Shown piece after piece: positions 1,095 to 61,860 of a DNA stretch of 64,000 bases. The DNA lies in assembly GCF_963921235.1 (NCBI RefSeq), contig NC_086097.1, forward strand, positions 18,044,001 to 18,108,000, written 5' to 3'. The position numbers and the translations under genes were made by a program. The stretch comes from Mobula hypostoma. Its lineage: Eukaryota. The stretch's first letter is position 1, and the number at the start of each line of letters is the position of its first letter. The notes below the pieces were generated by a model, which was not told the origin of the DNA, ran no database searches, and was given only the letters and a program-made list of their open reading frames with translations.

Positions 1095-1207
1095 GCAACA
1101 CACATCAAAGTTGCTGGTGAACGCAGCAGGCCAAGCAGCATCTATAGGAAGAGGCGCAGTCGACGTTTCGGGCCGAGACCCTTCGTCAGGACTAACTGAA
1201 GGAAAAG
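1095..1207 (-). mobile_element. Penelope-like element terminal-repeat fragment, 113 bp, with 12-bp TSD
   Basis: Matches the PLE terminal repeat at 11878-11990; tgaaatgttaca duplicated at 1083-1094 and 1208-1219. Confidence 0.85.
1158..1193 (-). ncRNA. Minimal type-I hammerhead ribozyme motif (intact core)
   Basis: Reverse complement reads AGUC-CUGACGA-A-GGGU-CUCG-GCCC-GAAAC-GUC-GACU: helix I AGUC/GACU, CUGANGA and GAAA core, 4-bp helix II, loopless palindromic helix III (ACGU), GUC triplet. Confidence 0.8.
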
Positions 1208-7350: not shown

Positions 7351-9699
7351 CTTGCTCCAACATACCCCATAGGAGCATAAACAAATTTGACCTTATGCCA
7401 CATAACGAAGACATTGGAACAAATGATCAAAACCTTGATTGAAGAAACAAATTTTGTGGACAATTATGAAGACCAAATACCTTGTAATCCTAAATAAATC
7501 GTTTATTTTCCCCAGAGAATGTAAACTGTTTAGAACTGACTCTCACTAAAGGAGAAGAGGTACTCTTCAAGTGTCTAACGTCTCAGTACCTGTAATTAAA
7601 TGATATCTATAAATTAGCATAAACATGGTATTTTTGTTCCTCTGCTGCCTTTTGCTGCATTCAGAAGGACTGTGCATATATCATAACAAAAAGAGTTGGA
7701 GAGGTCTGCTTATTGATCTTTTTCAGGAAAAGCAAATGGTGTAAGATTAAATTTATAAAATGCAGGAAGAACTCAGCAGGTCAGGCTGCATTTGTGGTAA
7801 GAAGGTTTTGAGCTGAGACATCAGGAAATGCCCCTCCATCATTTTGTGTGTGTCACTCTGAATTTCTAGCATCTGCAGAATCTCTTGTGTTTAAGATTAA
7901 ATTTAGCAAGTTTTACACAAGCTATTTTGAAGTGCTCTTCCTGACAATGTATGTTGGTCCATGCACTCTAAAAAGGAAATTAAAGACATATTTTCAGCTA
8001 CTTTATAAAATGAAAATCAGGCAGAATATACAAACGGTACACCAGATTGTTGTTGCTTGCTTAAAGCCTGTGTTCATATTGAATTATTTTGCAAGTGTTT
8101 TAATTAGGGTGCTGTAGGGAAGATCAAAGCAAGAACATGCATTGGCACAAATAGAAAGTTAGCAAATGCCATTCTCTAAAGTTCAATATTTGAGTGCTTA
8201 TTTTCTTTTCCTTTCCAGTTAGTTATATAAAGTTAATACCGTTGGACAGCTGACAAGTGGAACATTCCATCCCTGCCTGTCCTCAATCGGGCCTCCCTTC
8301 AGATTCAGATTTGTTGACAATGAATCTATTTTCCTTTCAGAAATACGTTGCTGAGTGAGAGAATTTGTTCTGGTAAAAGAAGGTTAGCACGCCTGTGAAG
8401 TGGGATTGACCACAGTCTTGAGTTAAAAGCAGATATGAAAGCACTATGGCAATTTTCAGCATTTGTGCTTTCTTATGTTCAAAGATAAAGGTGAGATGAA
8501 TTGTTGCTTTGTATGCAGTAGTGCAGTGGTCATCATTTGTAATGTGGCAAAACTTGTAAATGCTTTATTTTATGATATAATAAATATTTTGCACTCTTCA
8601 AGCTGTTTTTATTAATGCACTCTGGTATATTGCCAGTAGGTTTTGGTGAAATAGCTTCCATACCTTAACAAGACCTTGTAAAATACATTATCCAGTTAAT
8701 GTAGCAGGACGTGTGGATGTACACTCTGTGTTTCATTGGGTGACAGCCTTGGCTTTGCACCAGGACTTTTGTTCTTTAGTTCAAGACCCTCTCCAGAGAT
8801 TTGAAGACATGTTCCCGCTAAGTGTAGTTATATGGAAATGTAGCCCTTACAGAAGAAGAATCATTTCACATGACAGAAGACAAAGTTCAGAAATAAACAG
8901 TGTAAAACAAAGCTCTAAAATCAGGAATTACCAAGGGAAAGTTCTATAGTTTCACTAGGAAGATGAGCACTTCTCCTTTTGATAATATCATCACCACATT
9001 TTCAAAGAGACTGGTTGCATCTGACAAGCTGTTGTTTATGGCTGAATCCCCAGAAGACTGCCTATGGAAGAACATGATTGTAAAAGTTCTTCCTTTGATT
9101 TTTCATCTCAGAAATATATTTGACAGCTTGGCCCAGCATCATACCTGTAATAATACAAGTTTTCTGAATAAAATGCTTCAACCAGGCCTGCCTTCAGATT
9201 CAGATTTGTTGAAAATGAGCCCATTGCCCCCTCTGTAATGTGCACATTTTTCCTACTTCCCATGCATACAAATCTTTTGTAGTGACAAAAGCTGCAAATG
9301 GTTTGTTACATGTTATACTGAGGTACTGCTACACTGGGAGATATTTTGAGTTATATAATTATCACTCTTAATGAGCTTTCTAATTAAAATTGTACTAAAT
9401 ACTTAAACTTACTTCATAAAGGCTGAAAGACCCGGCAATAGAAAGAAAATGTCTGAGAGTAACCAGCAAGTTCTTACTGAAGGTGTTGAAGTATGAAGTG
9501 GGCACATAGTGTGTATTGCTTCTGCTGTTAATTGGGATTAAAGAAATATTAGCTTTATTCATCACATCTACATCAAACCTATAGAGAAATCCGTCATGTT
9601 GTGTCAAATCAGATCAACGAAGATCGTGCTAGACAGCCTGAAAGTGGCGCCACATTTTTGGCGCCATCATAGCATACCCACAACATTCACAGCTGTGAT

Positions 9700-10245
9700 A
9701 AACAGGAGAAAGTCTGCGGATGCTGGAAATCTAAAACAACGCACACAAAGTGCTGGAGGAACTCAGCAGGTCAGACAGCGTCTATGGAAATGAATAAACC
9801 TGCTGAGTTCCTCCAGCATTTTGTGTGTGTTGCTCTGGATTTCTCTGCAGAATCTCCCGTGTTGATGACCTGCTGTGCCATGCGAAGTCTCTTCGAGGGA
9901 TGCCTACCCAGAAGAACTTTGAATCTTCTCTTCAATGGGCGTTGTGAAACCCTCCCTTGCTGCTCCCCCTCTGTGATCTCTGCTGTCTTCCTCTTCGCCC
10001 ATGTACTCACCCAGACCCGCTACCACAGCCTTCTTCTCCAGCCATTGACCTTTCCTACCCACCTAGCTTCACCTATCACCTTCTCTCCCCCCCACCCCAC
10101 CCAACCTTTTTATTCTGGCATCTCCCCCTCCCACCCTACCTTCTCAATCCTGATGAAGGTTCTCGGCCTGAAACATTGATTGTTTATTCATTTCCATAGA
10201 TGCTGCCTGACCTGCTGAGTTCCTCCAGCATTTTCTGTTTTGCTT
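9700..10245 (+). mobile_element. Internally deleted mini-PLE (inverted stub, partial repeat, ORF start, full repeat)
   Basis: Inverted stub 9700-9799; direct repeat starting at 9799 and 10211; ORF-start remnant ..HVLTQTRYHS shared with the 11131 ORF; hammerhead at 10145-10182. Confidence 0.8.
10145..10182 (+). ncRNA. Hammerhead ribozyme motif, partly decayed
   Basis: CAAUC-CUGAUGA-AGGUUCUCGGCCU-GAAAC-AUU-GAUUG: helix I covaries with other copies and the core is kept, but the helix III palindrome is broken. Confidence 0.55.
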
Positions 10246-10974
10246 CCCCGCTATGAGGTGCTACACGTAATGAACAGATGACGTGCATCGTGGGAAGAAC
10301 CTGATACTTGCTAACTAGCCTAGATGCTAACTTTGACTAAAACAAAAGGATGCTGAATTATAACCATGATATAACAAAAATGAATTGGAGGAGATACTGA
10401 ACTTTGTAGTGATCTGCTTAGCCCATGGTTTAAACATTTCTCCTTAATCGCTTAGGTAAAATAGTGAGGTTCAAATTCTGCAGATGGAGCAAAGGAAGAT
10501 CTACAGACCTGGTGCCTGATGTCAGAGATAGAATGAAGGCTGGTGAAACTTCATCCAGGGATATCACTGTATATCATCCGTGAGGTAACCACATGGACTG
10601 AGTAGACAGTAATAAGAAAAGATATACACTATGTACAAATCGAATGCCACCTATGGTTGGTAATTGTCACTGAGGTTGCATTGTGTTGACTCAATGAGGC
10701 CCATGGTACCAATCATCTCAGAACTTGTTCAAAATGGATTTATTCAAATTTCTGGCTCATGTGGACATTTTGATCTATAACTTCTAGTTACAGTAAACAA
10801 ACATTCAGTTTGAGGAAGAACTCCGATTGTGTTCTCTGCTCTACATAGGCAGTTGGTTCATTCAGAATGCCTTTTTCCTATGGAATGGAAGCTGCAGAAT
10901 GAACATGACTTACTTGCACTTAATGTTTACATTTGGTTGATATGAATATCTTCTGTAATGAATAATATCTTACT

Positions 10975-11571
10975 GCAACACACATAAAAGTTGCTGGTAC
11001 CTCTTCCTAGAGATGCTGCCTGAACCTGCTGCGTTCACCAGCAACTTTTATGTGTGTTGCTTGAAATTCCAGCATCTGCAGATTTCCTCGTGTTTGCGTT
11101 TTTAAATTTACTGCGAAGCCTCTTCCGCTGATGCCTACACTGAAGAAGTTTAAATCTTATCTTCGACGGGAGTTCAGTGAAACCATCTCTCACTCCTCCC
11201 TATCTTTAATTTCTTCGGCTCTTCAACTTTTCGACCACATTTTGACTCAGACTCGCTATCACAGCCATATATCCTTTCTTGGAACGTGTCTCTCCCTAGG
11301 CCTCCTCTCATAGCCCTTTTGCCGATCACCTGTCCAGCTCTTGGCTCCATCCCTCCCCCTCCTGTCTTCTCCTATCATTTCGGATCTCCCCCTCCCCCTC
11401 CCACTTTCAAATCTCTTACTAGCTCTTCTTTCAGTTAGTCCTGACGAAGGGTTTCGGCCCGAAACGTCGACTGTACTTCTTCCTAGAGATGTTGCCTGGC
11501 CTGCTGCGTTCACCAGCAGCTTTTATGTGTTTTGCTTGAAATTTCAGCATCTGCAGATTTCCTTGTGTTTG
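10975..11571 (+). mobile_element. TSD-flanked mini-PLE with terminal redundancy
   Basis: TSD aatat(c/t)ttact at 10964-10974 and 11572-11582; inverted stub 10975-10998; direct repeat 10997-11096 vs 11473-11571; ORF start MPTLKKFKSYLRREFSET..LTQTRYHSHISFLGTCL fused to the 3' repeat. Confidence 0.85.
11437..11472 (+). ncRNA. Minimal type-I hammerhead ribozyme motif (intact core, UUCG loop)
   Basis: AGUC-CUGACGA-A-GGGU-UUCG-GCCC-GAAAC-GUC-GACU; predicted cleavage after 11468. Confidence 0.82.
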
Positions 11572-11599
11572 AATATTTTACTGCAGGCAGTTTGAACTC

Positions 11600-11842
11600 C
11601 GGGCAGGTTGGTGGAAATACATATTTACCAAGGGAGGTGTAAGGCGCTCCTTCCCTCCACTAACCTGTAGGTCACCCTTGGAAAAGGTGTAGCACCTGCT
11701 TTGCTCCCTGATCAGGGTCACGTGAAGCCACGAGATCAGGTGGTGGATGGTCGTATGAACAGCTGATGCACATCACAAGTCTTGGTTATACAACCACTGA
11801 CGACAGGCAGACATTCCCTGAAGAGTATTGATAATGGCTGGG
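11600..11842 (+). mobile_element. RTE-derived non-autonomous element, 3' part missing
   Basis: Homologous to 32816-33040 (gaggtgtaaggcgctccttccctcc...gaagagtattgataatggctggg). Confidence 0.7.
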
Positions 11843-12412
11843 CAAACACGAGGAAATCTACAGATGCTGGAAATTCAAGCAACACACATAAACAATGCTG
11901 GTGAATGAAGCAGGCCAGGCAGCATCTATAGGAAGAGGTACAGTCGACGTTTCGAGCCGAGACCCTTCGTCAGGACTAACTGAAAGAAAAGATAGAAAGA
12001 GATTTGAAAGTGGGAGGGGGATGGGGAGATCAGAAATGATAGGAGAAGACCGGAGGGGGAGGGATGGAACTGAGAGCTAGAAAGTTGATTGGCAAAAGGG
12101 ATACAAGGCTGGAGAAGGGAGAGGATCATGGTATGGGAGGCCCAGGGAGAAAGAAAGGGGAGGGGAGCCCAGAGAATGAGCAAGGAGTTATAGTGAGAGG
12201 GACAGAGGGAGAAAAAAAAAAGAGAAATAAATAAATAAGGGATGGGGTAAGAAGGGGAGTAGGGACATTAACGGAAGTTAGAGAAGTCAATGTTCAGGCC
12301 ATCAGGTTGGAGGCTACCCAGACAGAATATAAGGTGTCGTTCCTTCAACTTGAGTGTGGCTTCATCTTGACAGTAGAGGAGGCGGTGGATAGACATATCA
12401 GAATGGGAATGG
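11843..12412 (-). mobile_element. PLE 3' end (GIY-YIG C-terminus and terminal repeat)
   Basis: Minus strand encodes SHSDMSIHRLLYCQDEATLKLKERHLIFCLGSLQPDGLNIDFSNFR*, homologous to the 60062-60382 ORF; followed by a pyrimidine-rich repeat and a hammerhead. Confidence 0.85.
11942..11977 (-). ncRNA. Minimal type-I hammerhead ribozyme motif (intact core)
   Basis: Reverse complement AGUC-CUGACGA-A-GGGU-CUCG-GCUC-GAAAC-GUC-GACU; one extra G-U wobble in helix II. Confidence 0.78.
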
Positions 12413-12790
12413 GACTTTTCTCAGCCTTCGCAGGAAGTAGAGATGCTGCTGGGCTTTCTTTGCTATGGAGCTGGTGTCGAGGGACCAGGTGAGATTCTCT
12501 GCCAGGTGAACACCAAGAAATTTGGTGCTCTTAACGATCTCTTCGGAGGAGTCGTCGATGTTCAGCGGAGAGTGGTTGCTCCGTGTCCTCCTGAAGTCAA
12601 CAACCATCTCTTTTGTTCACATTCAGAGACAGGTTGTTGGCTCTGCACCAATCCATTAGCCGCTGCACCTCCTCTCTGCATGCTGACTCATCGTTCTTGC
12701 TGAGGAGACCCACCACGGTCGTGTCATCGGTGAACTAGATGATGTGGTTCGAGCTGTGTGTTGCAGCACAGTCGTGGATCGGCAGAGTAT
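12413..12790 (-). mobile_element. Rex-Babar LINE RT fragment
   Basis: MVVDFRR..KFLGVHLAENLTWS..KKAQQHLYFLRRL remnant. Confidence 0.8.
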
Positions 12791-21522: not shown

Positions 21523-24500
21523 CTTTCTTTTTAAATCTTTTTATTGAATAAGTATACCAAAAGGTAAGCCATATAAACATTAATACAATGTTAAAATATA
21601 ATAAAATTACAGAAGGTATCAATACCAAAAAAATACTACAAACAATGTAATTTAAACATAAGAAACCAAGATAACATAATAGTATACTAAATTTTATATA
21701 TATATCAATAGAAACCCCCCCCCAAAAAAAAACCCACCGTGCAACTAACTAAAAGCAAAGCAAAGCAATGGGCTAACTTGAAACCAAACAGAGTTAAACT
21801 TAGAATCACGTCCTCAATCCCGACCTCCATTAAAAACAGTGACAAAAAAACAAGAAGGGTATATATTACATTAAATGAAAATATCGAATAAAAGATCCCC
21901 AAATCTGTTCAAATTTAAATGAAGAATCATAAAGGTTACTTCTAATTTTCTCCAGATTCAAACATAATATCGTCTGAGAGAACCAAAAAAAGGTAGTTGG
22001 AGCATTAAGCTCTTTCCAATGTTGTAAAATACATCTTTTCGCCATTAAAGTAAGAAATGCAATCATTCTACGGGCTGAAGGGGAAAGATTACTAGAAATT
22101 TTAGGTAGTCCAAAGATAGCAGTAATAGGGTGAGGAGAGATATCTATATTTAATACCTTAGAAATAATATTAAAAATGTCTCTCCAAAAAGTTTCCAAAG
22201 TAGGGCAAGACCAAAACATATGAGTTAAAGAGGCTATCTGCCCCGAACATCTATCACAAAAAGGATTAATATGCAAGTAAAAACACGCTAACTTATCTTT
22301 GGACTTATGTGCTCTATGAACAACTTTAAATTGAATTAGGGAATATTTAGTGCAAATAGAGGAAGTATTAACTAATTGTAAAATCTGCCCCCAATCATCC
22401 ACAGAAATGGTAAACCCCAATTCCTGTTCCCAATCTACCCTAATCTTATCAAATGGAGCTTTCCTAAGTTTCATAATAATATTATAAATCATAGCCGATG
22501 CACCTTTCTGACATGGATTGAGGTTAATTATCGAATCTAAAATATATGTAGGAGGAAGCATTGGAAAGGAAGAAAGTATAGTACTTAGGAAATTTCTAAC
22601 TTGTAAATATCTAAAAAAATGTATTCTTGATAAATTATATTTATTAGATAGTTGTTCAAAAGACATAAGGGAACCATCTAAAAATAAATCCAAAAACCGT
22701 AAAATACCCTTAGTCTTCCAAGTTTGAAAAGCGCGATCCGTAAAAGAGGGAGGGAAAAAATATGTTACCTAAAATAGGAATCGCTAACCCGAATTGATTA
22801 AGATCAAAAAATTTTCTGAATCGAAACCAAATACGCAAAGCATATTTAACTATCGGGTTAGACACCTGCTTAAGGCGTTTCGAATCAAAAGGGAGAGAGG
22901 AACCTAAAATAGAGCCAAGTGTATAGCCCTGAACAGATTGTAGTTCCAATGCTACCCATTTAGGAATAGATAGTATATCCTGGTCAAGTAACCAAAATTT
23001 CATATGTCGAATATTAATTGCCCAATAATAGAATCTAAAGTTAGGTAATGCTAAACCTCCATCTCTCTTAGCTTTCTGTAAATGTATTTTACCCAGTCTC
23101 GGATTTTTATTCTGCCAAATAAATGAAGAAATTTTAGAGTCAACTTTATCAAAGAAAGATTTTGGAACAAAAATTGGTAATGCCTGAAACACATATAAAA
23201 ATTTTGGCAAAAAAAACATCTTAACTGCATTAATACGACCAATCAAAGTTAAATATAAAGGAAACCATTTAGATGAAAGTTGAGTAATATGGTCTATTAA
23301 TGGTAAAAAGTTAATCTTAAATAAATCTTTATATTTACAAGTAATTTTAATCCCAAGATAAGAAAAATAGTTATCAATCAATTTAAATGGAAATTTATAA
23401 TATAAGGGAAGATGTTTATTAATCGGAAAGAGTTCACTCTTACTAAGATTTAATTTATAACCTGAAAAAAAACCAAATTGTGCTAATAACTCTAAAACAG
23501 CAGGAATGGATTTCTCAGGATTAGAAATATATAAAAGTAAATCATCAGCATAGAGTGATAATTTATGGGACTTTAATCCCCGAGTTATCCCAGTAATATT
23601 TGAAGATTCTCGAATGGCAATTGCAAGAGGTTCTAATGCAATATCAAATAATAGGGGACTAAGAGGACAGCCTTGTCGAGTACCTCGAAAAAGAGGAAAA
23701 AAAGGTGAGTTTAAAGAGTTAGTACGGACCGAGGCTACAGGGGAATGATATAACAGTTTAATCCAGGATATAAATTTCAAGCTAAAGTTAAACATTTCAA
23801 GCACCTTAAATAAATAAGGCCATTCTACTCTATCAAAGGCTTTCTCGGCGTCTAAAGAAATAACACACTCAGGAACATTTTGTGAGGGAGTATAAACGAT
23901 ATTTAACAATGTACGAATATTATAAAAAGAGTAACGACCTTTAATAAAACCCGTTTGGTCTTCCGAAATAATAGAAGGAAGTACTTTTTCTAGTCTATTT
24001 GCTAATAACTTAGAAAAAACTTTAGAATCAACATTTAATAGAGATATTGGTCTATAAGATGCACATTGAGCAGGGTCTTTATCCTTCTTTAATATTAAAG
24101 AAATTGACGCTCTATTAAAAGATTCAGGAAGTTTACCAAGTTTCAGAGAAGCCTCAAAAATCCTACAGAGCCAAGGGATCAATAAAGAAGCAAAACATTT
24201 ATAAAATTCAACGGTAAACCCATCCGGGCCAGGAGCTTTCCCCAAATTCATAGAAAGAATAACATTCTTAATCTCATCCATAGTAATGGAAGTATCTAAT
24301 ATAGAAGACATATCCTGTGAAATCTGAGGGAAGTCTAAATTATCTAAAAAATCATTCATATGTTTAGAATCTCGAGGAGACTCTGATTGATATAAAGAAG
24401 AATAAAAATCACAAAAGGTTTGATTAATCCCCACATGATCCAGTATCAATCGATCATTTTGGTTATAAATCTGATTGATTTGAGATTTAACATAATTAGA

Positions 24501-24694
24501 TTTCAATTGATTAGCCAACAGCTTGCCAATTTTGTCACTGTGAACATAAAATTCACTTCTTGTTTTCTTTAATTGGTTTACAATCGAGGACGAGAGTAGT
24601 AAACTGTGTTCCATTTGAAGTTCAGTTCTTTGTTTGTATAACTCCTCAGAAGGAGCCATAACATATTTCTTATCAATTTCTTTAATCTTGTCCA
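21523..24694 (-). mobile_element. 5'-truncated L1-clade LINE with 17-bp TSD
   Basis: TSD cccatggtccgctcttt at 21506-21522 and 24695-24711; AATAAA and A-rich tail near 21523-21545; TT|AAAG target site on the minus strand. Confidence 0.95.
21866..24694 (-). pseudogene. L1 ORF2 (RT and C-terminal CCHC knuckle), endonuclease domain missing, one frameshift near 22750
   Basis: GKAPGPDG, YRPISLLN, SLDAEKAFD, GTRQGCPLSPLLF, LYADD, YLGI in the 668-aa ORF; CDRC..HMFWSC in the 275-aa ORF. Confidence 0.93.
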
Positions 24695-25293
24695 CCCATG
24701 GTCCGCTCTTTAACAAATTATGGTATTGCTTTGCACTGCTGTAACTATATGTTATAATTGTGTGGTCTTGTCAGTGTTAGTCTTTGATTTGTCCTTTTTT
24801 TGTGATATCACCCTGGAGGAATATTGTATCACTTCTTAATGCATGCATGCATTTCTAAATGACAATAAACGAGGACTGAGCGTCCTCATAATCTAATCTA
24901 ATCTAATCTTCCTAATTGAAGCACAAATCATATTTAAAAGAGCAGTTGAAGTCGCTGTTTCCATGGAAACAGCGGACAGAGATACAATTGAGTTGCAGTC
25001 AGGAATGAAAGTGAGTGTGAACAAAATTGCAATGTCTAAACAGAAACTGGCTGGCAAAACAAATAGTGTTCTGTTGTGACGGGGGCTCACATACTACAGT
25101 ACAATGCAGGTTTAAATGTGAAACATGCAGAAAATGTGACAAAGTAGGACACATACAAAGAGCATGTCAGGCAGACTAAAATAAATGAACTGCACAGGAA
25201 AGAGAAAAAGCTAAAAAAGTCAAGTAACAGTTTCAAAAAGTGTACTCACTAACCTGCAAGCTGTTGACGAAAGTAATGAGAGTGAAACATGAT

Positions 25294-32815: not shown

Positions 32816-33165
32816 TGGTGGGGTGGAGATATGTCTCTACCAAAGAGAGGTGTAAGGCGCTCCTTCCCTCCGCTAGCCTGCAGGTCATCCTTGGGCAAGG
32901 TGTAGCACAAGGTCACATGAAGCCACGGGGGCAGGTGGTGGATAGCCGTATGAGCAGCTGGTGCAGATCACAAGTGCTGGTTATGCGACCTCTGACGCCA
33001 GGCAGACAATCTCTGAAGAGTATTGATAATGGCTGGGGTCACCCGTCTTGTAAAGACACTGCCCAGATGAAGGCAACGGCAAACCACTTCTGTAGAAAAA
33101 TTTGCCAAGAACAATCATGGTCATGGACAGAGCATGATCACCCAAGTCATACAACATGGCACATT
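32816..33165 (+). mobile_element. RTE-derived non-autonomous element
   Basis: 3' end gaaggcaacggcaaaccacttctgtag resembles the RTE/BovB tail; related pieces at 11600 and 14281. Confidence 0.7.
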
Positions 33166-54881: not shown

Positions 54882-55964
54882 TGTCATGGTCCGGTCCGTG
54901 AAGTCCGCATTCCGGTTCGCGGTCCGGTCCATCGACCCTTGCTCCAGGTTTTCCTGTCTACCCTGTTTCTGTTCCTGTTTAGCACTAGTTGAGGCAGCTG
55001 ATTCTCGTTGGGGCTGGCTGCATAAATACCTCCAGAGACCAGGGCGTGGGTGCTGGATTGTTCTTGTCCTTACTCCTTCTATCCCTTCCCCTGCCTTCTG
55101 TTTCCTCACCTGAAGCCTTGCCTTGTCTTGCCGGTAACTCTCGCCTTGCCTGAAGTTCTTGTCTCGCCTTGCATTGCCTGAAGCCTTGCCTTGTCTTGCC
55201 GGTAACTCTTGCCTCGTCTTGCCTGAAGCCCTGTCTTGGAGCCACCCTGGACCTAGCTCCCTTCCTGTCCCTTGCCTCTGTCGGGTAAGCCAGACCAGAT
55301 TGCCGTTACCCTGCAGTGGGTCCTGTCCCTTGCTGTCTCTTGCCTCCGTCGGGTGGTGATCCGCGCCCTGCCCAGGAGTACCGCGCCCTGCCCAGGAAGA
55401 GCTACAAGACCCCAAGTCCCTAGCCGAGCCTTGCCCCAAGCCAAGCTTCAAGACCCCAAGCCTCAAGCCTCTGGTCGCAAGCCTCACCTCAAGCCTTTGG
55501 TCACAAACCTTATCTCAAGCCCCTGGTCGCAAGCCTCACCTCAAGCCCCTAGTCGCAAGCCTCACCTCAAGCCTTTGGTCACAAACCTTATCTCAAGCCT
55601 CTGGTCGCAAGCCTCACCTCAAGCCCCTGGTTGCAAGCCTCTGGCCTCCAGCCTTGCCTCATGTCTCTGGCCTCAAGCCTTGCCTCCAGTCTGAAGACTC
55701 CTGCCTTGTCCTGCCTGCCAGCCAAGTCACGTCCTTGCCTAGTTCTGGGGTCTGAGCCATAGGCAAGACCCAGGTTCTGGGTCTTTGTCCAGTCTCTGGC
55801 TCGGAGTCCAAGCCCTGGCTCCTAACTCTCTTGTCCAGTCTTGTTCTGGGTTCCCGGTTTTCGTGTCCATGTTCTAGCCATCACCCTGTATCCTAGTTCT
55901 GTCCCTAGTACTTCAGTGTCTGTGTCTTGCACTTGGGTTCGTTCCCAGCCACCCCCTTATGACA
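54882..55964 (+). mobile_element. Solo LTR, 1083 bp, with internal tandem repeats
   Basis: TGTCAT...ATGACA termini; ctctc TSD at 54877-54881 and 55965-55969; TATA-like cataaata at 55021. Confidence 0.88.
55473..55630 (+). repeat. 26-bp tandem repeat, ~6 copies, organised as two 78-bp higher-order units
   Basis: Unit ggtcgcaagcctcacctcaagccyyt; the variant ggtcacaaaccttatctcaagcc recurs after 78 bp. Confidence 0.85.
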
Positions 55965-58914: not shown

Positions 58915-59665
58915 TCCGTCCTGAAATTCTTGTTCTTCGCAGACATCCACAAAAACAGAAGAGTGCCCCGAAGAGTGAGTGACGGTAAAAACGTTGGAAC
59001 CCCAAAGCCCTCCTACTCCCCCACCCACACACAAGCAGTAGCAAAGCAATGACCCTCCCCCACCCACACTTCCTTCAGCAAAAAAAGCAACAAAACCCGC
59101 CACCCACCAAAGATGCAATAGCAAGACCCGAAGATAGACCATGATCTGCAGTACAACAAAAGCAAATCATTCACCCAACAAATTCAACATGCTACAGGCT
59201 CTCTCTCCTCCTAATAAAGGGAAAGAGGGGTGTCCCCTTTCACAGCAAGAAGGGAGACAAACACAACAACTCTCTGATTTATGGTGATAAAGTCTGCCAC
59301 ATCGCTCTCTCCTGGAGATCTTCAATGTGAGAATCGGCAACAAACTCTCCTCCACCACTAAGAAAGAGAGTGCATAATCATCGAGTACAGAGCCTCCGAC
59401 AGCTGATTCGCTGTTCCCAATGTTCCATTTTCTTTCACGGTGCTTCAGTCACGGCATGGAATAAGCTCATCCATGGGGTCGTGAAGCCTTAGAACCCCGA
59501 AGGTGCATTTGTCTTCTACGCCGCGTTCTAGGGATTTTGAGAAGCACCCGGTTGTAAGCCCCCACCGGATTCCACCACAGCAAAGAACTAGAGTCTAATT
59601 ATAACTCCAGGACAGGGTCTCTGACAGATCCCCATGCACCCTGAAATGGAAAAAAGGTAGATATT
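58915..59665 (-). mobile_element. Non-coding LINE-derived element
   Basis: 3' end reverse complement ..gcgaagaacaagaatttcagg resembles Rex-type tails seen elsewhere in the window; no coding homology. Confidence 0.45.
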
Positions 59666-59667
59666 AA

Positions 59668-60420
59668 AGCAGCCCACACAAGACGCTGGAGGAACTCTGC
59701 AGGCCAGGCAGCATCTATGGAAAAGAGTAAACAGTCGATGTTTCGAGCCGAGACCTTTCACTGGAGAAAAAAGATGAGAAGTCAAAGTAAGAAGGTAGGT
59801 GGGGGTGGGGAGGAAGAAATAAAAGGTAGTAGGTGATAGGTGAAACTGGGAGAGGGGGAGTGGTGAAGAAAAGAGCTGGGAAGTTGAGTGGTGAAAGAGA
59901 TAAAGGGCTGGAGAAGGGGGAATCTGATAGGAGAGGACAGTAGGCTATGGAAGAAAGGGAAGGGGGAGGAATACCAGGGGGAGGTGATGAGCAGGTAAGG
60001 TGATAAGGTGAGAAAGGGAAATGTGAATGGGGAATGATGAAGAGGCAGGGGAGGTTGGCCATTACCGGAAGTTTGTGATGTTCGTGCCATCAGGTTGGAG
60101 GCTACCCAGATAGAATACAAGGTTTTGCTTCTCCAACCTGAGTGTGGCCCCATCGCGACAGTAGAGGAGGCCATGGACTGACATGTTTGAATGGGAATGA
60201 GAAGTGGAATTAAAATGGGTGGCCACTGGGAAATCCTGCTTTTTCTTGCAGACAGAATGCAGGTACTCGGCAAAGTAGTCTCCCAATCTATGTTGGGTCT
60301 CACCAAAATACAGGAGGCCACACTGGGAGCACCATACACAGTAGATGAGCCCAAAGGACTCACAGATGAAGTGTTGACACACCTGGAAGGTCTGTTTGGG
60401 GCATTGAATGGTAGTGAGGC
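59668..60420 (-). mobile_element. Penelope-like element 3' end with GIY-YIG endonuclease remnant
   Basis: ORF 60062-60382: GLIYCVWCSQCGLLYFGETQHRLGDYFAEY..PVATHFN..LRLEKQNLVFYLGSLQPDG; followed by a terminal repeat with a truncated hammerhead near 59733-59763. Confidence 0.9.
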
Positions 60421-60431
60421 AGGATTATGTT

Positions 60432-61860
60432 GGTCCATGACCTTTACTGCCATTTAATACCATCGTTCCCACAATCCTGATTGGGAAGTTGCAGAACCTG
60501 GGCCTTTGTACCTCCTTCTGCAATTGGATCCTCGATTTCCTAAATGGAAGACCACAGTCTGTGCGGATTGGTGATAACATATCCCTCTTGCTGACGATCA
60601 ACATTGGCGCACCTCAGGGGTGTGTGCTTAGCCCACTGCTCTACTCTCTATATACACATGACTGCATAGCTAGGCATTGCTCAAATGCCATCTATAAATT
60701 TCCTAACAATACAACTATTGTTGGTAGAATCTCAGGTGGTGATGAGAAGGTGTACAGTAGTGAGATATACCAACTAGTGGAATGGTGCCATAGCAACAAC
60801 CTGGCACTCAACGTCAGTAAGACGAAAGAACTGATTGTGAACTTCAGGAAGGGTAAGATAAAGGAACACATACCAATCCTCATAGAGGGATCAGAAGTGG
60901 AGAGAGTGAGCAGCTTCAAGTTCCTGGGTGTCAAGATCTCTGAGGATCTAACCTGGTCCCAACATATTGATGTAATTATAAAGAAGGCAAGACAGCAGCT
61001 ATACTTTATTAGGAGCTCGAAGAGATTCGGCATGTCAACAAATACACTCAAAAACTTCTATAAATGTACTGTGGAGAATATTCTGACAGGCTGCATCACT
61101 GTCTGGTATGGAGGGGCTACTGCACAGGACCAAAAGAAACTGCAGAAGGTTGTAAATCTAGTCAAATCCATCTTGGGTACTAGCCTACAAAGTACCCAGG
61201 ACATCTTTAGGGGGCGGTGTCTCAGAAAGGCAGTGTCCATTATTAAGGACCTCCAGCACCCAGGGCATGCCCTTTTCTCACTGTTACCATCAGGCAGGAG
61301 GTACAGAAGCCTGAAGGCACACACTCAGCGATTCAGGAACAGCTTCTACCCCTCTGCCATCTGATTCCTAAATGGACATTGAATCTTTGGACACCACCTC
61401 ACTTTTGTGTTGGGCACGTGGCCAAGTGGTTAAGGCGTTCGTCTTGTGATCTGCAGGTTGCAAGTTCGAACCTCAGCTGTGGCAACGTGTTTGTGTCCTT
61501 GAGCAAGGCACTTAACCACACATTGCTCTAGTGTCTGTGCAAGGAGTGCCGTCCACGCAGACTTCCAATCTGCGCCTTGTAAGGCATGAAAACGCCAGAC
61601 GCAGGCCTCTCATGGTCTGAGTCGACGTTCCCTCCCTCCCTCACTTTTTAAAAAATTATACAGTATTTCTGTTTTCGCATGCTTTTTTGATCTATTCAAT
61701 ATACGTTATTGATTTACTTGTTTATTTATTATTATTTATTTCATTTATTATTACCATTTTTTTTCTCTCTGCTAGATTTTGTATTGGATTGAACTGCTGC
61801 TGCTAAGTTAACAAATTTCACGTCACATACCAGTGATAATAAACCTGATTCTGATTCTGA
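60432..61860 (+). mobile_element. Rex-Babar LINE, 5'-truncated
   Basis: 291-aa ORF with [20 protein letters not shown]; catalytic FADD mutated to FPNN; (ttctga)n tail. Confidence 0.92.
61407..61638 (+). mobile_element. tRNA-headed CORE-type SINE, full length
   Basis: A box tggccaagtgg, B box gttcgaacc, core gtgtccttgagcaaggcacttaacc, (ccct)n tail; TSD cctcactttt at 61397-61406 and 61639-61648. Confidence 0.9.

Follow-up and report, generated by a model that had tools for sequence, protein, structure and literature searches.

What a hammerhead ribozyme does for the Penelope-like element (PLE) that carries it has been called unclear (PMC8557442, in the part available), and the locus analyzed here poses that question for a single copy: can a minimal hammerhead in the genome of Mobula hypostoma act where it now stands, and with what help? 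The motif lies at 11437-11472 on the plus strand of a 64,000-nucleotide stretch of contig NC_086097.1 (the window), where an initial annotation had described it as a hammerhead with a loopless helix III and an extra nucleotide after A9. On re-reading the sequence, we found the 36 bases and their coordinates to be as annotated. The core is complete (CUGANGA, GAAA, and UH in type-I order) and matches a strict descriptor. Specifically, the four pairs of helix I (11437-11440/11469-11472), extendable by one U-G pair (11436/11473), enclose the core segment CUGACGA (11441-11447), an extra A between A9 and G10.1 (11448), a four-pair helix II (11449-11452/11457-11460) with its loop at 11453-11456, the core segment GAAA (11461-11464), and C15.2-G16.2-U16.1-C17 (11465-11468), with the predicted cut between 11468 and 11469. 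Helix III is indeed loopless and palindromic, consisting of ACGU at 11464-11467 with no room for a loop. The motif is not a chance occurrence, because the strict descriptor had three matches in the window and none in any of 200 dinucleotide shuffles. A loose CUGANGA..GAAA pattern was weak (15 found against 8.2 expected, with 2 of 100 shuffles equally high). The Rfam search that had been proposed as a check returned no hammerhead family across the whole window at E up to 1, and no hammerhead match within 11400-11520 (121 bases) even at E up to 10.

The architecture corresponds to the minimal type-I hammerheads (min-HHRs) that were described, without helix III and loop 3, in the pseudo-LTRs (pLTRs) of metazoan PLEs (Cervera and De la Pena, 2014; PMC4209133), so that the initial assignment to PLE hammerheads was right. 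Both the missing loop and the extra base, which had been singled out in this copy, are present and are not special: a nucleotide between 9 and 10.1, a G10.1-C11.1 pair, and a palindromic 15.2-16.2 recur among the published min-HHRs. According to the same source, the focal copy also shares with them the type-I topology, the full core, a short helix I, and a setting of mostly solo copies from truncated elements and opposite-strand pairs, which in the published cases lie 100-700 bp apart. Helix II differs, with 4 bp in the focal copy versus 7-8 bp in the schistosome families. Its closing UUCG was read correctly at 11453-11456, but it is private to one of the 13 copies that we recognize in the window and is closed by a U-G pair. 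We therefore rejected the idea of a designed UUCG tetraloop: the family loop is CUCG, with C at the first position in 10 of 13 copies. An extra A between A9 and G10.1 also occurs in the (+) hammerhead of Chrysanthemum chlorotic mottle viroid, where the extra A10 lowers cleavage only moderately (PMC3705267, excerpt); this likeness implies no shared origin. Shark or ray terms were absent from two supplementary files of PMC4209133, and the focal family may be unlisted in that paper; our literature search on Penelope-element hammerheads in sharks found no paper that, judged from its listing, addresses the topic. The motif itself matters little: the 2014 paper already covered this class along with the absent loop and the additional base, and the focal motif is one of very many copies.

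To which element does the motif belong? In the longer copies of the window, the end of a reading frame is followed by a pyrimidine-rich stretch and then by the motif (12271-12414 and 60065-60421). The endonuclease frame is 70-77% identical to three Mobula/Hypanus proteins among 23 candidates (P0002-P0004), which carry GIY-YIG at E 0.0005-0.002, slightly below the Pfam cut-off; Pfam returned nothing on the two endonuclease frames of the window itself. By eye, all three proteins have a CX3-4CxxC linker and two of the three have RT-like motifs. Neighbours of P0002 in the Atlas carry HTH_animal and GIY-YIG, and no solved structure matched P0002. The order expected of an endonuclease-bearing (EN+) PLE, with RT followed by a C-terminal GIY-YIG, is thus seen through these 70-77% identical relatives, the window having no RT frame. 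The linker falls within the CX2-5CxxC type ascribed to Neptune and Nematis (PMC8557442, in part). The same source gives partial tandems, inverted 5' arms, and tails as the anatomy of PLEs, and the focal family matches it with a partial tandem, an inverted 5' arm, a tail, 5' truncation, and target duplications of 14 and 12 bp. The motif also sits where a pLTR is expected, after the GIY-YIG C-terminus and 3' UTR, with the tail repeated at the 5' end. We are therefore highly confident that the motif is the min-HHR of a very abundant endonuclease-bearing PLE with a Neptune/Nematis-type linker, that a single motif would need refolding, and that the focal copy is likely inert.

The other end of the element is less directly characterized. 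The putative first 54 codons of its ORF (11131-11292, plus strand) match residues 1-54 of shark proteins at 56-65%, with nine protein matches at E up to 0.001; the five that we looked up come from Hemiscyllium, Stegostoma, Chiloscyllium, and Rhincodon. A word-index search and the Atlas gave no match to this frame. Only DNA context links it to the PLE, because neither RT nor GIY-YIG was matched on the shark proteins resembling it. That context consists of two blocks in the window and of contigs joining tail to ORF start in two sequencing runs (X19 and X2, among the rows listed). As a side observation, the gene models P0002-P0009, deposited publicly for sharks and rays under the names 'mucin-2' or 'uncharacterized', appear to derive from fragments of this PLE.

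The insertion that carries the focal motif (10975-11571) is short and rearranged. It is flanked by a 14-bp target-site duplication (10964-10977 and 11572-11585, 13 of 14 bases identical), the last three bases of whose left copy also fit the adjoining inverted arm. This arm (10975-10998, minus strand) is a 24-base reverse copy of the pLTR tail from +44 to +67 relative to C17, and it is joined head-to-head, with two bases of overlap, to a 5' copy of the tail that lacks the ribozyme and starts at +5 from C17 (10997-11096; 92 of 99 bases identical to the 3' tail). The ORF start follows, and then an internal deletion junction (about 11293-11310) with the pyrimidine-rich 3' UTR (together 11293-11436), in which homology to the minus-strand copy nearby starts at 11311. 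The motif and the 3' pLTR tail (11473-11571) complete the insertion. Compared over motif and tail, the focal copy matches the two remaining young copies at 120 of 135 and 85 of 94 bases. Of 16 fragments inspected for target duplications, two have a clear one; a further 7-mer is likely due to chance. The focal copy is carried along at the 3' end of an insertion that is young, lacks an internal part, and does not code for protein, and it has no partner in cis.

Such a block could instead be the unit of a mobile non-autonomous family, retrozyme-like and with a period of 476 nt, rather than a one-off deletion. The target duplication does enclose the deleted form, and an older insertion at 9700-10243 shares its layout. 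Animal non-LTR retrozymes, reported as PLE derivatives, likewise are non-coding, a few hundred bases long, derived from PLE terminal repeats, and equipped with a type-I hammerhead; the excerpted preprint reports them in its one cartilaginous fish and may list the focal family in its supplements (bioRxiv 10.64898/2026.07.22.740005). Against this stand the single hammerhead per block and the absence of the unit from the eight tandem arrays found in the window. Moreover, the two blocks differ in the type and length of their 3' UTR and are therefore not copies of one unit. The focal block does not qualify as a non-LTR retrozyme, and we consider a mobile non-autonomous family quite improbable. Contig cover is lowest around the deletion junction and none of the listed pieces spans the whole stretch to which contigs were aligned, which leaves this cover neutral as to a family of deleted forms.

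We next consider the copies with which the motif might cooperate. Those previously noted at 1158-1193 and 11942-11977 are present, with one and two mismatches respectively and both on the minus strand. They are far from the only ones, as an ungapped scan allowing up to 13 mismatches recognized 13 copies in the window. The extra base between 9 and 10.1 occurs in all 13 (A in 12), and the G10.1-C11.1 position is G-C in eight, G-U in three, and unpaired in two. The palindrome ACGU is intact only in the three young copies; the ten older ones all lack it, six having ACAU and four AUGU. Across the CpG columns, 28 of 30 changes are transitions. As judged from these alignments, the loss of the palindrome in older copies follows the pattern of methyl-CpG decay without selection, as in neutral decay.

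This pattern bears on the idea that the host adopted the focal copy as a regulatory ribozyme. All core bases are intact, as adoption would require, but the youth of the copy, attested by the bases shared with the other young copies and by its near-perfect target duplication, explains this intactness, and older copies decay at CpG. We regard host adoption as very improbable indeed; most likely the focal copy is inert and heading for the CpG decay seen in its older relatives. An apparent excess of core conservation over the rest of the motif (p=0.001) was rejected once four edge or subfamily columns had been dropped (8/130 versus 25/208, p=0.09). Covariation among the 13 copies, which belong to one family and are too few and too close for such an analysis, gave one pair with two-sided change, no better than shuffles.

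The annotation had further proposed that activity needs two copies, in tandem or in trans, which would make cleavage a report of tandem or abundant transcripts. Cleavage as dimers is indeed a published model for such hammerheads: in the accessible portions of the sources, a schistosome min-HHR monomer showed no cleavage while dimers and trimers cleaved at a low level (PMC4209133), and a review agrees on dimer cleavage (PMC6765202). The intact palindromes of the three young copies and the very large size of the family, within which trans partners could exist, also speak for an RNA-only dimer. The copies named as partners do not bear this out. The copy at 11942-11977 is antisense to the motif, 35 of whose 36 bases would be paired with it in a read-through RNA. 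The copies at 1158 and 11942, separated by 10,784 bases, belong to different insertions. On the strand of the motif, the closest copy (10146) is 1,291 bases upstream, and where the palindrome ACGU is expected it reads ACAU. Among the 13 copies there is no intact same-strand partner, either within 1.3 kb or farther along the plus strand.

Folding calculations point in the same direction. Computed for the monomer, the minimum free energy structure (-12.9 kcal/mol) is a rod with G5-A6-C7-G8 paired to C15.2-C17, and a monomer with helices I and II only (-8.9 kcal/mol) has a probability of 0.0007. Within the 10997-11571 unit, helix I forms with a computed probability of 0.02. Secondary structure on its own does not favour the dimer, because in the nearest-neighbour model the double hammerhead (-16.7 kcal/mol) lies 14 kcal/mol above the extended duplex (-30.7 kcal/mol); all of these energies ignore tertiary contacts. 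Published dimer activity is low, and in the portion available of the retrozyme preprint one of nine Xenopus dimers cleaved in vitro and the other eight were inactive (bioRxiv 10.64898/2026.07.22.740005). We consider it unlikely that the focal copy cleaves as a dimer of RNA alone.

Alternatively, the PLE protein might bind near the tail and ORF start and refold the RNA, with or without a second motif. The closest precedent is PAc (Poseidon, from Anolis carolinensis), whose hammerhead was active only with the PLE protein, an effect that persisted in endonuclease mutants (Frangieh et al., 2024; PMC11167929, in part). In PAc and in the focal family alike, the hammerhead sits in the pLTR just upstream of or near the ORF start, and a defined tail downstream of the ribozyme marks where insertions end. 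The predicted rod is, in addition, a trap that needs unfolding. The two systems are not equivalent, however: the PAc ORF starts inside the ribozyme, whereas the conserved Met of the focal family lies about 160 nt past the cut site, and the relatives of the focal element possess the Zn-finger-like linker that is attributed to Neptune and Nematis, unlike PAc, which is a Penelope/Poseidon element. The focal locus encodes no protein, so that any help would need to be supplied in trans. We give protein-assisted cleavage slightly less than an even chance.

Together, the folding numbers are in line with a motif dependent on a partner and, probably, on a protein. In an active element, the motif would lie in the pLTR between the 3' UTR and a 100-nt tail running into the ORF start. 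A single motif could not form helix III and is predicted to adopt the inactive rod. Cleavage after C17 would then require refolding, in which the two motifs carried by a partial-tandem transcript exchange their helix I strands and the ACGU of one pairs with the ACGU of the other, probably helped by the protein of the element. Cleavage, dimer formation, and protein help are proposed here by analogy with the literature, and the folds are computed. We also observed that core position 7 (11445) is C in the young subfamily and U in 7 of 13 copies. With C at this position, the core of the predicted monomer can form all 4 bp with C15.2-C17, and this C may act as an off-state lock.

The family extends far beyond the window. 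We aligned contigs to 504 bases at 85% likeness in 4 of 24 sequencing runs and obtained 29,390, 19,158, 5,966, and 2,639 aligned contigs, respectively; this PLE family is very large. Summed depth is far greater over the 3' part and is not a copy number. The first loop position is C in 97, 94, 66, and 86% of summed contig depth in the four runs, and the extra A is not among the 40 contig differences listed out of 78. At C11.1 (11460), T accounts for 55% (X1) and 48% (X2) of the summed depth, but for 14% (X19) and 7% (X20) in the other two runs; this split suggests that different subfamilies dominate in different organisms. None of the 24 matching runs is listed as RNA; the 'RNA?' labels of X1 and X2 are guesses and carry no information on expression. 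The family motifs had no matches in viral contigs and none in metagenome contigs. The many loose contig ends at 11437-11439 were rejected as truncation points: the ends are pyrimidine-rich and are read as the other 3' UTR of older subfamilies.

Being young, very large, and furnished with clean target duplications, the family is a possible test system for the role of the hammerhead, in which insertion ends near the cut site could be counted across the genome. In the window, we examined 11 fragment starts and dropped two (7826 and 19688, decayed copies still holding part of the motif). Four of the remaining nine 5' ends lie within -2 to +5 of C17, two at -2 (2380 and 45187) and two, from independent insertions, at +5 (9799 and 10997). 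Under a uniform null this clustering has P=0.004-0.023, for an interval chosen after seeing the data, and the ends of old copies are local-alignment ends and hence fuzzy. The first base of helix I is also where three of the 13 copies holding the motif start (2388, 58156, and 19535); their flanks are rich in purines. Four head-to-head inverted junctions are present (2312-2524, 7756-7895, 9700-9865, and 10975-11096), each with one arm starting inside the motif or at +5 from the cut; a fifth pair, with 150 bases between its arms, was left out.

These ends raise the possibility that, in vivo, the point at which reverse transcription of this PLE halts is determined by the ribozyme, an idea that we hold tentatively and consider less probable than its opposite. 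Such ends could arise by run-off at +1 from RNA cleaved in vivo and trimmed at joining, or by stalling of the polymerase at the foot of helix I (+5). The +5 ends fit such a stall at least as well as cleavage, since cleaved RNA would end at +1, and the -2 ends include bases that would be missing from an RNA cut at this site. Thirdly, the clustering may reflect transcription that starts within the pLTR. In the available text of PMC11167929, hammerhead cleavage of PAc was dispensable for insertion in vitro and no reads ended at the cut site. A literature search on this idea found no paper covering all of its elements, which is weak evidence of absence. If the ribozyme does fix insertion ends, the tens of thousands of copies would offer the first genome-scale readout of PLE hammerhead action.

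Several further PLE copies surround the focal insertion. A separate 5'-truncated copy (11843-12414, minus strand) is convergent with it and runs from the final 48 codons of the GIY-YIG endonuclease (12271-12414) through the 3' UTR and the hammerhead at 11942-11977 to the tail. These two independent copies form a 261-bp inverted repeat of 89% identity with a 270-base spacer (11311-12103), over which a read-through RNA would be predicted to form a long duplex. Between them, 11610-11842 is a different short repeat, 79% like 32822-33037. The hammerhead at 1158-1193 belongs to a 113-bp 5'-truncated copy (1095-1207, minus strand) flanked by an exact 12-bp target duplication (1083-1094 and 1208-1219). 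The older insertion at 9700-10243 (plus strand), of another subfamily, comprises an inverted tail (9700-9799, minus strand), tail, ORF start, deletion, 3' UTR, a decayed hammerhead (10146-10181), and tail, and its inverted repeat yields sub-threshold Rfam hairpin matches at 9737-9832. The longest PLE fragment of the window (59665-60460, minus strand) holds a GIY-YIG frame (60065-60421), the 3' UTR, and a decayed hammerhead at 59733-59768. More broadly, the window consists of vertebrate DNA rich in repeats and contains many disrupted retrotransposon frames, which we take to be CR1, L1, and RTE-like. A tandem array of a 26-base unit occupies 55461-55692 (about seven plus two copies, with a 78-base higher period), and two long adjoining frames of 686 and 300 amino acids at 21866-24770 (minus strand) presumably represent an L1-type ORF2.
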